From: Dictyostelium discoideum
Taxonomy: Eukaryota
Length of the DNA stretch: 64,000 nt
NCBI GenBank assembly: GCA_000004695.1
Contig: CM000151.3
Span: 7,520,001 to 7,584,000, forward strand
Direction of reading: 5' to 3'
Shown here: positions 1 through 8,418 of the stretch, one piece after another
Position numbering within the stretch: the stretch's first letter is position 1
How the letters are laid out: each line of letters begins with the position of its first letter
The notes under the pieces: model-generated
The model's input: the letters and a program-made list of their open reading frames with translations, nothing else
What the model was told of the DNA's origin: nothing
Database searches by the model: none
Program-made: the position numbers and the translations under genes

Positions 1-249
1 TATTTTACCAAATTTAACACATTTATTAATAGGTACAACTAATAATTGTTGATAGAACTTGTTGTTGTTGATTTTCATCCTCATTGTTGTAAACTTTTAT
101 TCGAAAATTTTTCTTCTTCATTCTCTTCATGTAAGAGTTCTAATTGGTCCATTTCATTTTGTAGAATTAAGAAAAACCAAATTGGGAGATTATGGGTGAA
201 AAAATTGGTTTTTTCTAAAATATCATCAAAATTAATAAAAAAAATATGA

Positions 250-692
250 TTTCAGCTTTTTTTTTTTGAATTGGATAACGCAATTATTATTTGCTTCTCC
301 TTGAGATGCTAGATCTCATTTTATTTTATTTTTTTTTTTTTTTTTTTTACAGGGTCTCTAAAAGAGGGGTTAGTTTACTTTTTTTTTTTTTTTTTTTTTG
401 TTTCGAATTTTGAATTGTATTATTACTTTTGATTAAAACATCTTTTTTGTCCAAACTTTTTTCTAAATCTTTTTTTATTTTATCGTCTGGTTCGTGATTG
501 ATGTTTATGACGTATTTGAATTGTTTTTTTTTTAATTGAGTTTTATCCACAATTTCGCTTATTTTTTGTAGGCATTTGTGTTGCTTAATATTTGTGGTGT
601 TGTTTGTGAGTTTCATTTTATTTTCTTTCTATTTTTTATATTTTTCTTTAAAAAGTTAAAAATCTGGAAATTTTCTGATTAACTTGGGTTCC

Positions 693-760
<68 letters not shown>

Positions 761-1136
761 AATGAATACTTTTTATTGGAAAAAGGAATTTTTCAAAAAA
801 AGGAATGGTGGTGGTGGTGTGTTTTTTTTCAACCGAATAATTTTTTGCTTTTTTTTGAAAATTTTGCTCACCAAAATTCTCAAACCGAAACACCAGGTTC
901 TTTTTAATTAAACATCTTTTTTTTTCCAACCTTTTTTCTAAAAACTTTTTTAAATTATCGTCCGGGTTCGGAATGAAGGTTAAGCCGGAATTTGAATTGT
1001 TTTTTTTTTTTAAATGAGATTTATACACAAATTTGCCTATTTTTTGTAGGCATTTGTGTTGCTTAATATTTGTGGTGTTGTTTGTGATTTTCATTTTATT
1101 TTCTTTCTATCTTTTTTATTTTTCTGATTAACTTTG

Positions 1137-1140
<4 letters not shown>
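250..1140 (-). mobile_element. Older nested or truncated TRE5-type retrotransposon fragments. They comprise two truncated ORF1 5' ends, a diverged A-module-like segment at ~780-900, and oligo(A/T) junctions.
   Basis: ORFs 347-616 and 648-1094 on the minus strand share the MK(I/L)TNNTTNIKQHKCLQKI N-terminus with ORF1 at 1491-2825. The segment 'ttttttgaaaattttgctcaccaaaattctcaaaccgaaaca' is a diverged copy of the A-module core. The junction motif 'atgatttcagct' at 246-258 also occurs at 4385-4397. Confidence 0.5.
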
Positions 1141-1194
<54 letters not shown>

Positions 1195-1490
1195 TTATAG
1201 AAAGTACTGAGTGAATTATTGTATTTTTTGAGATGTTTAGGAAGTTCTATTGCGGGTGTTGATGATGATTTGTGACACCCCTTGTCCTGTTTTATCAATT
1301 GGTGCGTGGTGTGTTATTTTGTTTTTATATTGTTGATTTATTGAGTAAATTTTATTTGTTTTTATATTTGTTTCAGTTAGAAGTGCTGCGTCCAGCTTGT
1401 TGTTGTCTAAAACGGTGTTTATTATGCTGGCAGATTGGATGGTGTTGGATCCTTGGACGTTCCAAACACCTATTCTTATTGTGTTTTTCT

Positions 1491-2825
1491 TTATAGTTTT
1501 ATTTGGGGTAGATTTTTATCTACCTTTTGAAGTTTCTGGTTTATTTTGTCTTCTAACTGATCTTTACTTTGTTCGTTGTGTTGTTGGTCTTGTGTGTTTG
1601 TGGGGTTTTTTGATTTATTGATTTGTTTTAGAATTTCCTTGTTGAAGTTGTCTATATCTTCATCCATTTTTGTTTTTATGCTTTTTTGTCCATATTCACC
1701 CAATTTTGGTTTGACTGGTGTTTTGTTGGTCTTGTTTGTTTTGTCTTGTTGTTTCTTTTTTGGTGTGTTTAACAATTTACTTGGTGAATCGATAATTTTC
1801 GATGGTGTACCATAGGTTGGGCTGAAACTCATGATATGTTTTATTGGAGAGGAGAAGAACCATTGATTTGAAGGGATTGAAAGTGGGAATTCTATTTTTC
1901 TTATTGCATCAGTGTTTGGGCTGGTGAAGTCGAAGATATCATTTGCCTCTCTAAGTTTTTCTTCCGTTGTTAGTCCCTTTGTTTCGCCGTGTTGTTTTAT
2001 TGGTGTATTGTATGGAGATGGTGGTTCGATAGGTTTTTCTGATTTTGTTTTAATTTCTTGATTGTTTATCGATTGTGTATTGATCTCATTCTCTATTCTT
2101 GTTAGTTCATCTACGTTTTCTAGTGATGCTTCTATTACCTTTTGAGCTGTATCATCTAGGGCCATAAATGTTTTATCATTAGATGAGGATGTGATTGGTG
2201 GGATAATGATTGTTCTTTTTCCTTGTTTTGGTATTTGTTCTGATGTAGATTGTGGTTGTTGTTCATCTGATTGTTTTTTATTTTTGTTTTCTTCTTGATT
2301 TTCTGGTAATGAGGTTTGATCTCTCCATCCTTTGTTGGAGTGACCAATTAATGTTAGATTGTCTAGTTCAATGATAGTATCATATTCTTCTACGACTCTT
2401 TTCACTGTTTTGATAATTAGAGTTTCGCCTTTAATTTCAGATTTAATTAGTTTACATCCTTCATTTTCTATTACCCATTCTATTTCTGTGAGTGATTTAT
2501 ACCAATCGAAATCCGTATACATATTTTTTGGTCTTAGAGTGGTTATAAATTGTCCTTTTAATTCTGCATCGAACATATTTACAAAATAGATTACTGTACT
2601 AATACTGTCTGTGAGAATTTTGAATGTATTATTACTTTTGATTAAAACATCTTTTTTGTCCAAACTTTTTTCTAAATCTTTTTTTATTTTATCGTCTGGT
2701 TCGTGATTGATGTTTATGACGTATTTGAATTGTTTTTTTTTTAATTGAGTTTTATCCACAATTTCGCTTATTTTTTGTAGGCATTTGTGTTGCTTAATAT
2801 TTGTGGTGTTGTTTGTGATTTTCAT
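1491..2825 (-). CDS. Retrotransposon ORF1 protein (444 aa) of the TRE5-A-like element
   Basis: Uninterrupted 444-codon ORF starting MKITNNTTNIKQHKCLQKI. The same N-terminal sequence recurs in two truncated upstream copies, at 347-616 and 648-1094. Confidence 0.6.
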   Translation of the reverse strand: MKITNNTTNIKQHKCLQKISEIVDKTQLKKKQFKYVININHEPDDKIKKDLEKSLDKKDVLIKSNNTFKILTDSISTVIYFVNMFDAELKGQFITTLRPKNMYTDFDWYKSLTEIEWVIENEGCKLIKSEIKGETLIIKTVKRVVEEYDTIIELDNLTLIGHSNKGWRDQTSLPENQEENKNKKQSDEQQPQSTSEQIPKQGKRTIIIPPITSSSNDKTFMALDDTAQKVIEASLENVDELTRIENEINTQSINNQEIKTKSEKPIEPPSPYNTPIKQHGETKGLTTEEKLREANDIFDFTSPNTDAIRKIEFPLSIPSNQWFFSSPIKHIMSFSPTYGTPSKIIDSPSKLLNTPKKKQQDKTNKTNKTPVKPKLGEYGQKSIKTKMDEDIDNFNKEILKQINKSKNPTNTQDQQHNEQSKDQLEDKINQKLQKVDKNLPQIKL

Positions 2826-2900
2826 TTTATTTTCTTTCTATTTTTTATATTTTTCTTTAAAAAGTTAAAAATCTGGAAATTTTCTGATTAACTTGGTTCC

Positions 2901-2952
<52 letters not shown>

Positions 2953-2955
<3 letters not shown>

Positions 2956-4397
2956 TCTTTTTTATATGAAAAATGAAATAATCAAAAAAAGAGATTGTTG
3001 TTGTTGTTTGTTTTTTTTCGATCTGATTATTTTTTGCTTTTTTTTGAAAATTTTGCTACGCAAAATTCTCAAAACGAAACAAATAATAAATTACAATAAA
3101 GTAAAAAGATGGCTTTTTAAGATAGTTTATTTATTTATTTATTTGTTTTTTAAGTCTTTTTTATATGAAAAATGAAATAATCAAAAAAAGAGATTGTTGT
3201 TGTTGTTTGTTTTTTTTCGATCTGATTATTTTTTGCTTTTTTTTGAAAATTTTGCTACGCAAAATTCTCAAAACGAAACAAATAATAAATTACAATAAAG
3301 TAAAAAGATGGCTTTTTAAGATAGTTTATTTATTTATTTATTTGTTTTTTAAGTCTTTTTTATATGAAAAATGAAATAATCAAAAAAAGAGATTGTTGTT
3401 GTTGTTTGTTTTTTTTCGATCTGATTATTTTTTGCTTTTTTTTGAAAATTTTGCTACGCAAAATTCTCAAAACGAAACAAATAATAAATTACAATAAAGT
3501 AAAAAGATGGCTTTTTAAGATAGTTTATTTATTTATTTATTTGTTTTTTAAGTCTTTTTTATATGAAAAATGAAATAATCAAAAAAAGAGATTGTTGTTG
3601 TTGTTTGTTTTTTTTCGATCTGATTATTTTTTGCTTTTTTTTGAAAATTTTGCTACGCAAAATTCTCAAAACGAAACAAATAATAAATTACAATAAAGTA
3701 AAAAGATGGCTTTTTAAGATAGTTTATTTATTTATTTATTTGTTTTTTAAGTCTTTTTTATATGAAAAATGAAATAATCAAAAAAAGAGATTGTTGTTGT
3801 TGTTTGTTTTTTTTCGATCTGATTATTTTTTGCTTTTTTTTGAAAATTTTGCTACGCAAAATTCTCAAAACGAAACAAATAATAAATTACAATAAAGTAA
3901 AAAGATGGCTTTTTAAGATAGTTTATTTATTTATTTATTTGTTTTTTAAGTCTTTTTTATATGAAAAATGAAATAATCAAAAAAAGAGATTGTTGTTGTT
4001 GTTTGTTTTTTTTCGATCTGATTATTTTTTGCTTTTTTTTGAAAATTTTGCTACGCAAAATTCTCAAAACGAAACAAATAATAAATTACAATAAAGTAAA
4101 AAGATGGCTTTTTAAGATAGTTTATTTATTTATTTATTTGTTTTTTAAGTCTTTTTTATATGAAAAATGAAATAATCAAAAAAAGAGATTGTTGTTGTTG
4201 TTTGTTTTTTTTCGATCTGATTATTTTTTGCTTTTTTTTGAAAATTTTGCTACGCAAAATTCTCAAAACGAAACAAATAATAAATTACAATAAAGTAAAA
4301 AGATGGCTTTTTAAGATAGTTTATTTATTTATTTATTTGTTTTTTAAGTCTTTTTTATATGAAAAATGAAATAATCAAAAAAAGAGATTGTTGTTGT
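2953..4397. repeat. Tandem array of 7.2 copies of a 199-bp unit (TRE5-A A-module, which contains the promoter)
   Basis: ORF-track artefacts at 2966, 3165, 3364, 3563, 3762, 3961 and 4160 are exactly 199 bp apart and have identical translations. The last partial copy ends in ...gagattgttgttgttgtttctatgatttcag at about 4397. Confidence 0.9.
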
Positions 4398-4450
4398 TGT
4401 TTCTATGATTTCAGCTAAAAAATTTAAAAAAATTTAAAAAATATCAAAAT

Positions 4451-4521
4451 GGGAGATTAGTTAAGTGGTATAATGCTACCTTTGGGTGGTAGCGTCCTGA
4501 GTTCGATTCTCGGATCTCCCC
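4451..4521 (+). tRNA. tRNA-Pro (anticodon UGG), 71 nt, no encoded CCA, followed by a T-rich Pol III terminator
   Basis: Hand-folded cloverleaf. Acceptor GGGAGAT pairs with ATCTCCC. D-stem is GTTA/TAAT with a GG-containing loop. Anticodon stem is CTACC/GGTAG with loop TTTGGGT (U33, anticodon TGG, G37). T-arm is CTGAG-TTCGATT-CTCGG. Discriminator C is followed by 'attctttta'. Confidence 0.75.
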
Positions 4522-4552
4522 ATTCTTTTATTTCCTTGTGAATTTAATCGAG

Positions 4553-4563
4553 GGTTCGACTCT
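4553..4563 (+). promoter_or_regulatory. Extra downstream B-box (ex-B box, GGTTCGACTCT) about 32 bp 3' of the tRNA gene
   Basis: Matches the Pol III B-box consensus GGTTCGANTCC and sits outside the tRNA body. Dictyostelium tRNA genes are known to carry such an element. Confidence 0.6.
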
Positions 4564-7903: not shown

Positions 7904-8418
7904 ATTTTTTTTTTTTTTTTTTTATTATTATTTCGTTATTATTATTATTATTATTATTATTTTTGTTTTTTATTTTAATCTATTATTATTATTATTATTT
8001 TTATTATTTTGTTTATTTAAAAAACGAAAAATAAAAATAGTGTATTCAAAGCTTTAAATACGTTTATTATTGTTTTATTTTTATTTTTTTTATTTTTTTT
8101 TTTTTTTCTTTTTGAGAAAAAAAAATTAAAAATAAAAAAAAAAAGTTTTTAGTTTCCTCAAAAATTACCTTTAGCCAAAAAAAAAAAATAAAAAAAAAAA
8201 AAAAAAATCAAAAAAAAAAAAAATCAAACCCAATTTCGTTTGATTGAATATTATTTTAAATTAAATTAATAAAAAAATAAAAAAAAGTGGTATTTGTTGA
8301 TCTTAATCATTCGAAACAAATATCTTTGGTTGGGTGATTATATTTTATTATTTTATTTTTTTTAATTTTTTTTTATTTTCCAAAACACACTCCAACCACA
8401 CCATTTTTTTTTTGCTAT

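Follow-up and report, generated by a model that had tools for sequence, protein, structure and literature searches.

The DNA analyzed here (the window) is a 64-kb stretch of chromosome 2 of Dictyostelium discoideum AX4 (contig CM000151.3, positions 7,520,001–7,584,000), whose host sequence is AT-rich Dictyostelium DNA. Close to its left end, a retrotransposon block that we assign to TRE5-A occupies positions 258–4403 upstream of a tRNA-Pro(UGG) gene, with its 5′-end directed toward the tRNA gene and its open reading frame 1 (ORF1) on the opposite strand to it (Table 1). The insertion point lies 47 bp upstream of the tRNA gene, counted from element nucleotide 4403 to tRNA nucleotide 4451, and not at the distance of about 53 bp given in a preliminary description of the sequence. 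TRE5-A elements are found 46–49 bp upstream of tRNA genes in a strict orientation (PMC5391098, PMC3159450), and both the spacing and the orientation seen here agree with this rule, so that, together with the module layout, they bear out the earlier placement of a TRE5-A element at the canonical position. The tRNA gene is followed by a B-box-like motif, GGTTCGACTC, which is the single match to GGTTCGANNC in the window, where 0.10 would be expected by chance. According to the passage of PMC3159450 that cites Hofmann et al. (1991), D. discoideum tRNA genes have a second B-box consensus a few tens of bp downstream, and the predicted motif would represent this external B-box, which the preliminary description had also noticed. 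When the modules of the element were compared with the rest of the window by BLAST, only poly(A)-type low-complexity matches were obtained, and no TRE5-A fragment was detected past position 4500.

The comparison set consisted of 19 loci with related copies, which were collected by exact-protein look-ups mainly from the independent chromosome-scale assembly GCA_054883475.1, and modules cut from the window were assigned in them by BLAST. Look-ups made with the ORF1 protein of the window and with the AX4 proteins P0001–P0003 gave no match in the index, which did not include the AX4 assembly. Ten of the 19 loci proved to be full-length, with ORF1 followed by a 1047-aa ORF2 that carries an RVT_1 domain, and these ten showed the layout AB-ORF1/ORF2-BC, the modules of which are also present in the window. 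Homopolymers included, the modules measure 199 bp (A), 287–288 bp (B), and about 135–140 bp (C), in accordance with the 200, 290, and 134–137 bp reported for TRE5-A, which has the same layout (PMC3159450). A 3′ B-module and a C-module are both present in TRE5-A alone, in contrast to TRE5-B and TRE5-C (PMC3159450), and the window contains both. Four residues in the 3′ hairpin region of the C-module, C38, A35, C26, and T15, have been named as mutated residues (PMC3159450), and when the nucleotides are counted from position 268 as the 3′-end, all four are found in the window (C, A, C, and T at nt 38, 35, 26, and 15); the terminal region of this module is also predicted to fold better than shuffled sequences (z = −2.9). 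ORF1, which had been described correctly as intact with 444 amino acids, is 98–100% identical to AX4 proteins, being identical to DDB_G0276975 (P0018, 8.48-Mb contig) and 98% identical to many "hypothetical proteins," and in relatives it stands alongside the 1047-aa ORF2 with RVT_1; no Pfam family was matched by ORF1. No database entry named TRE5-A was found, and the name is applied here because of these structural features. On these grounds, the element is identified as TRE5-A (formerly DRE), a known non-LTR (long terminal repeat) retrotransposon in its usual place, which occurs in an autonomous form, TRE5-A.1, and a nonautonomous, ORF2-deleted form, TRE5-A.2. A related element with an ORF1 of 66% identity and an ORF2 with RVT_1 was found in Dictyostelium cf. 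discoideum (L001, GCA_054859235.1); its 17.7-kb locus contains no tRNA gene, and the element adjoins an LTR-retrotransposon gene.

Table 1. Features of the TRE5-A insertion and its target in the window (TRF, Tandem Repeats Finder; TSD, target-site duplication; L012 and L013, loci of assembly GCA_054883475.1 that together represent the orthologous site)
Feature	Position	Strand	Basis and remarks
TSD, distal copy, TATGATTTCAGCT, 13 bp	245–257	.	exact copy; same junction in the other assembly
3′ oligo(A) tail, 10–11 nt	258–267	-	direct sequence reading; identical in L013
Complete C-module with two internal oligo(dA) tracts and terminal hairpin	268–408	-	95–100% identity to the terminal module of 10 full-length copies
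Distal (3′) B-module, full length	409–696	-	99.7% identity to 3′ B of TRE5-A.1 copies
Oligo(A)63 (T63) before the distal B-module	697–759	-	TRF; oligo(A) before every B-module in the family
Partial A-module, 3′-terminal ~130 nt, low quality	760–898	-	aligns to A-unit positions ~70–199
TRE5-A.2-type 3′ B with remnant of the A.2 B/C deletion (gaacctg)	899–1138	-	8- and 29-nt leader deletions common to canonical A.2 3′ B
Oligo(A)58 (T58) between ORF2 end and 3′ B	1139–1196	-	TRF; internal, not the element end
ORF2 remnant, 294 nt	1197–1490	-	first 237 nt and last 57 nt joined, the TRE5-A.2 deletion
ORF1, 444 aa, intact	2825..1491	-	open reading frame; mosaic of A.1 (2825–2343) and A.2 (2252–1491)
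5′ B-module, holds the ORF1 start at 2825	2618–2904	-	100% identity to 5′ B of six full-length TRE5-A.1 copies
Oligo(A)48 (T48) at the A/B boundary	2905–2952	-	TRF; 26–48 nt at the same boundary in every other copy examined
A-module array, 7.29 copies	2953–4402	-	TRF, unit comparison, array walk
TSD, tRNA-proximal copy, TATGATTTCAGCT, 13 bp	4404–4416	.	exact copy; identical junction in L012
tRNA-Pro(UGG), integration target	4451–4521	+	ARAGORN; sole tRNA gene found
External B-box-like motif, GGTTCGACTC	4553–4562	+	31 bp downstream of the tRNA

The limits of the block are given by the 13-bp TSD TATGATTTCAGCT, exact copies of which occur only twice in the window, where 0.01 would be expected. 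This pair encloses the whole 4146-bp block, as the distal copy follows the oligo(A) tail and the proximal copy abuts the 5′-end of the A-array. TRE5-A is known to generate TSDs of 10–16 bp and to end in a 3′ oligo(A) (PMC9012585), and the duplication and the (A)10–11 tail found here are consistent with this. No copy of TATGATTTCAGCT was seen at the internal junctions 697/760, 1139/1197, or 2905/2953, and the duplication that the preliminary description had sought at 1140/4398 is absent from there. The same description had interpreted the locus as the result of repeated insertion, in which a young TRE5-A.2-like element was stacked on two older truncated TRE5 copies. Such stacks are indeed common at other tRNA genes, as two to four TRE5-A elements at single tRNA genes were found in four loci of the comparison set (L003, 7616–16932; L002, 4826–13252; L010, 6306–13236; L019, 5425–10570), but genuine stacks repeat the TSD after every element. 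The TSD was repeated four times in L003, where gttttgtaatt(t)aa stands after the poly(A) of all four elements, three times in L002, where gattaatcaccaat closes each of the three elements, and twice in L019, where atatatctaattt closes each of the two. The re-duplication of an identical target site in these stacks shows that nicking took place repeatedly at the same two positions. In the window, a poly(A) with its own TSD copy is found for the block as a whole and not for each supposed element, and because the single TSD pair encloses everything, unlike in true stacks, the block 258–4403 is not a pile-up. Moreover, its outer junctions represent one event that is common to another assembly (see below). 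The block is very probably a single TRE5-A insertion unit with a mosaic interior that formed after insertion or in silico. Integration would have proceeded by target-primed reverse transcription with the 5′-end facing the tRNA gene.

Three oligo(A) runs, each followed by an element-like 5′ leader, could also be taken to suggest independent insertions, and this argument can be examined from the order of the modules. On the minus strand, the block reads A (7.29 copies) - (A)48 - B - ORF1 - ORF2 remnant - (A)58 - B (A.2 type, with the A.2 B/C deletion) - partial A - (A)63 - B - C - (A)10. The combination of (A)n, cctgggaac(c)aagttaatcag, and ATG occurs three times in the window, and oligo(A) preceded all 48 B-module starts examined in 17 other loci, the overall range being 26–63 nt, with 26–48 nt after an A-module and 29–44 nt after the end of ORF2. 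Oligo(A) followed by cctgggaac and the ORF1 ATG is therefore the normal start of a B-module within single elements; TRE5-A has a B-module at both ends, and the element in the window has three. The alternative offered in the preliminary description, namely that this pattern is a structural feature of the element, was thus confirmed by the other loci. The run at 1139–1196, which had been taken for the end of the element, is an internal boundary preceded by the ORF2 C-terminus, exactly as within every A.2 copy: the junction ctttctataaataa-(A)n-B, that is, ORF2 C-terminus, oligo(A), and B, was found in all A.2 copies and at L003:16300. At 63, 58, and 48 nt, the three runs of the window exceed all 45 equivalent runs in the other assembly (26–44 nt), which may be a strain difference or a homopolymer-length error in either assembly.

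The distal stretch 760–1138, where the older copies had been supposed, was compared with canonical modules. Positions 1138–1038 are identical to canonical A.2 3′ B-modules, while 22 error-like substitutions appear from 1037 downwards, and the partial A-module (760–898) contains 21 substitutions, including 16 transversions and 17 changes that copy a neighboring base. Over 768–1037 as a whole, 43 substitutions were counted, 33 of them transversions, and 36–37 of the 43 copy the adjacent base, where about 18 would be expected (P < 0.0002 in each half). In genuinely old copies (L001, L003, L005, and L011), by contrast, transitions and transversions are balanced and no neighbor bias is seen. Read on the plus strand, the error-like changes begin directly after the T63 run and end at 1037. 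The divergence of 768–1037 is therefore not mutation-like, and it probably results from out-of-phase base calling after a long homopolymer in a reference of single-read quality rather than from evolution. The possibility that 760–1138 derives from an older, divergent relative within TRE5 (TRE5-B/C or an ancient A form) was considered and rejected, since the first 100 nt of this stretch agree fully with modern A.2 copies and the rest differs by neighbor-copying transversions. The supposed older copies are best read as the 3′ B- and C-modules of the element itself together with an additional, incomplete A-B unit. Where the B/C remnant meets the partial A-module (~898–905), the sequence GACCCTG(T)GTTTCGTTTTGAG shows TG/GT-type microhomology. 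Taken together, the missing internal TSD copies, the internal nature of the oligo(A) runs, and the error-like divergence make a stack of independent insertions highly improbable.

The 294-nt remnant of ORF2 encodes the endonuclease N-terminus (IGVWNVQG...) at its start and ...AIELPKHLKKYNNSLSTFYK* at its end. It is 99.7–100% identical over the 294 nt to nine TRE5-A.2 copies, while full-length copies match positions 1–237 only; the loss of ORF2 in a deleted variant, as claimed earlier, corresponds to the large deletion of TRE5-A.2. In an alignment of window positions 2904–1197 with six A.2 copies and four A.1 copies, one of them from the orthologous locus, the A.1 allele was present in the window at nine of nine A.1-specific sites (2847 to 2343) and the A.2 allele at 13 of 13 A.2-specific sites (2252 to 1411). 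The A.2 deletion junction was found as well, and there were no private changes. The switch between the two sets of alleles takes place once, within 90 nt that contain no diagnostic site. A.1 type is also seen, with 100% identity, in the A-units and the 5′ B-module. Consequently, the interior is a clean mosaic. A.1-type sequence extends from the A-array through the 5′ B into the first ~480 nt of ORF1, where it gives way to A.2-type sequence that covers the remainder of ORF1, the ORF2 deletion, and the following B, and the final (A)63-B-C is again the resident 3′-end.

The A-array consists of a 57-nt 5′ partial unit and seven identical 199-bp units, with a single additional nucleotide, 4403, at the 5′ junction; TRF reported 2927–4402 with 7.4 copies and 99%. 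The tandem array of about 7.2 copies noted in the preliminary description is thus present, with 7.29 copies by our own count, but the number is not exceptional as had been assumed, since other copies have 1.3–36.4 modules. The TRE5-A.2 copies contain 1.31–2.48 A-modules, and values of 1.34, 1.36, 3.29, 3.34, 3.37, 7.36, 10.36, at least 15, and 36.36 were obtained for TRE5-A.1 copies. The array is a tandemly repeated promoter module, the copy number of which varies freely between copies. No literature match was found for the A-modules or for the accessions of the other assembly. In five of nine full-length copies (L003, L004, L005, L009, and L010), the A-array starts at the same nucleotide, (c)agatcgaaaaaaaac, 72–73 nt before the unit boundary, and this shared start presumably marks the transcription start within the A-module. 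In the window, the start lies 15 nt deeper in the module and bears an additional nucleotide. The longest array, 36.4 A-modules (7.2 kb), belongs to a TRE5-A.1 at another tRNA-Pro(UGG) gene (L007/L008/L009, overlapping; GCA_054883475.1, CM142511.1, ~3.018–3.045 Mb), where it is followed by three tandem B-ORF1-ORF2 units with a period of ~4890 bp and one terminal B-C, forming a B-module-mediated tandem trimer.

The orthologous locus in GCA_054883475.1 (L012 and L013) was reached via the flanking 864-aa gene and a short ORF running into the left flank. The truncation point, the extra nucleotide, and the TSD at the 5′ junction are all identical in the two assemblies, and on the 3′ side, window positions 1–700, comprising B-C-(A)10-TSD and the flank, are identical at 697 of 700 nucleotides. 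Between these junctions, the other assembly contains 3.29 A-modules followed by a tandem dimer, B-ORF1-ORF2-B-ORF1-ORF2-B-C, of full-length TRE5-A.1, ~10.9 kb in total. The preliminary description had warned that the array could be collapsed or expanded in assembly and that a different count would refute its copy number. This warning applies, since the independent assembly has 3.3 A-modules at the same insertion and, by that standard, contradicts the copy number, although this may be a strain difference. As the junctions are identical and A.2-type sequence is absent from the other assembly, the A.2 part was either absent at insertion or replaced later. The flanks of the two assemblies differ by about 15 substitutions in 16 kb (about 1 per kb), suggesting that the other assembly may derive from another strain. 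Apart from the element, an intergenic repeat-rich stretch between a chloride-channel-like gene and the 864-aa gene is longer by ~460 bp in the other assembly (window ~8177–8228, L012 9043–9501).

Since one TSD pair surrounds the whole block, its mosaic structure could also have arisen in a single retrotransposition, with reverse transcription starting from an A-(A)n-B-C RNA, jumping at the TG/GT microhomology to a TRE5-A.2 RNA, and jumping a second time within ORF1 to a TRE5-A.1 RNA. The microhomology-type junction at ~898–905 and the clean switch within ORF1 would both suit such a chimeric cDNA. However, this course of events requires two jumps and an unusual template, and it is hard to reconcile with the other assembly, which shares both junctions, the truncation point, and the extra nucleotide, yet has no A.2-type sequence; we consider it unlikely. 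The mosaic would rather have been formed by joining across repeats of more than 99% identity, either after insertion, by homologous recombination or gene conversion with an A.2 copy, or in silico, by chimeric Sanger assembly.

It is quite conceivable, although we would not call it probable, that the mosaic is a chimera of the reference assembly. In that case, the true AX4 locus would carry a TRE5-A.1, monomer or dimer, and the Sanger assembler would have threaded into TRE5-A.2 reads within ORF1 and returned to the resident 3′-end via a single stuttered read. This would explain why an independent chromosome-scale assembly has another interior between the same junctions, and why the A.1-to-A.2 switch is clean, falls in a stretch devoid of diagnostic sites, and is free of private mutations. 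The seven A-units, being 100% identical, could not have been counted by Sanger reads shorter than 1.4 kb, which would make their number unreliable; the error-like substitutions at 768–1037 resemble single-read, post-homopolymer sequence, and the three oligo(A) runs exceed any in the other assembly. On the other hand, the passage from the B/C remnant into the partial A-module lies inside one read-length stretch and hence existed in at least one clone.

A real recombinant formed after insertion is likewise a possible, if tentative, explanation. In this case, a TRE5-A.2 copy or its cDNA would have replaced part of the resident TRE5-A.1 through ectopic homologous recombination or gene conversion. 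The left exchange would lie in ORF1, the right end would have been joined by microhomology into an A-module upstream of a B-C end, and the A-array would then have changed from about three to about seven units by unequal exchange. The single switch point of the mosaic and the identical outer junctions around different interiors in the two assemblies are in line with this, and the modules evidently recombine elsewhere, as seen in the B-module-mediated dimer and trimer (L013 and L007–L009) and in arrays of 1.3–36.4 A-modules. However, the recombinant requires an extra nonhomologous junction, for which there is no second example and which sits in sequence with an error signature.

Some points weigh against the reading of the block as one insertion unit with a secondarily formed mosaic interior. 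The B/C-remnant-to-A junction had no second example in the 19 other loci when these were searched with a regular expression, and a protein search with the ORF spanning the B/A segment returned ordinary B-module ORFs only and no second such arrangement. This junction, which falls within the low-quality stretch, is not accounted for by this reading. In addition, the data of the window favor neither a real recombinant nor an assembly chimera, the two being about equally likely, and if the other assembly represents a different strain, the difference in the interior may be a true polymorphism, which also counts against the chimera.

The biological significance of the locus is small, as TRE5-A, its A-, B-, and C-modules, the targeting of tRNA genes, and the ORF2-deleted derivative have been known since 1989–1992. 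The practical consequence is that the AX4 reference at this place (the DDB_G0276975 model, the A-module count, and 768–1037) is unsuited as locus-specific sequence without long-read confirmation. The two assemblies indicate that the number of A-modules and the A.1/A.2 identity can differ between identical junctions, and if this is real, recombination among copies reshapes the elements, which matters for the counting of "active" versus "nonautonomous" copies. Possibly, then, dispersed TRE5-A copies exchanged sequence after insertion at one fixed, shared site, so that an A.1 interior was partly replaced by A.2, the array changed from ~3 to ~7 units (36 elsewhere), and B-modules mediated multimerization. 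With a real mosaic, TRE5-A elements at tRNA genes would evolve by frequent ectopic recombination and not by new insertion alone.

Among known systems, the closest to the element are the two forms of TRE5-A itself. In the A-units, the 5′ B, the initial 480 nt of ORF1, and the terminal B-C-(A)10 as well as both junctions, it is of the TRE5-A.1 type (DREa, the autonomous 5.7-kb element AB-ORF1/ORF2-BC), and these parts match the resident element of the other assembly; it differs from TRE5-A.1 in the absence of ORF2 (1047 aa with RVT_1 in relatives) except for 294 nt. With TRE5-A.2 (DREb), it has in common the same ORF2 deletion junction with the remnant of 99.7–100% identity, the A.2-type alleles in the 3′ two-thirds of ORF1, and an A.2-type 3′ B in which both leader deletions (8 and 29 nt) and the beginning of the B/C deletion are present. 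TRE5-A.2 is defined by a 3′-end in which a B-module bearing a B/C deletion of ~72 bp leads into the last ~87 nt of C and then poly(A); in the canonical copies, the deletion measures 69 nt and the C remnant 79 nt. The nine canonical copies have 1.3–2.5 A-modules and end in this 79-nt C remnant and poly(A). The window, by contrast, combines 7.3 A-modules of A.1 type with a 5′ B and an ORF1 start that are also of A.1 type, and it lacks the C remnant and the tail of A.2: past the beginning of the deletion (gaacctg), it continues into a partial A, (A)63, a full B, and a full C.

A DRE subform reportedly described by Marschalek et al. in 1992 is said to have a distal "BC.ABC" order, that is, B, C, a slightly altered A, B, and C, together with a proximal "AnB." By description only, the distal order of the window, B-(C remnant)-altered or partial A-B-C, and its proximal A(n)B with n > 1 can be likened to this subform, but the first C of the window is ~7 nt long, its A-module is 5′-truncated, and no second example occurs in the 19 loci. 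A functional analogy to the A-array is provided by the 5′ untranslated region of mouse LINE-1, where promoter-bearing monomers of ~200 bp stand head to tail in variable number, the 5′-most one being truncated. The two are unrelated in sequence and host, and in TRE5-A the array is followed by oligo(A) before the B-module.

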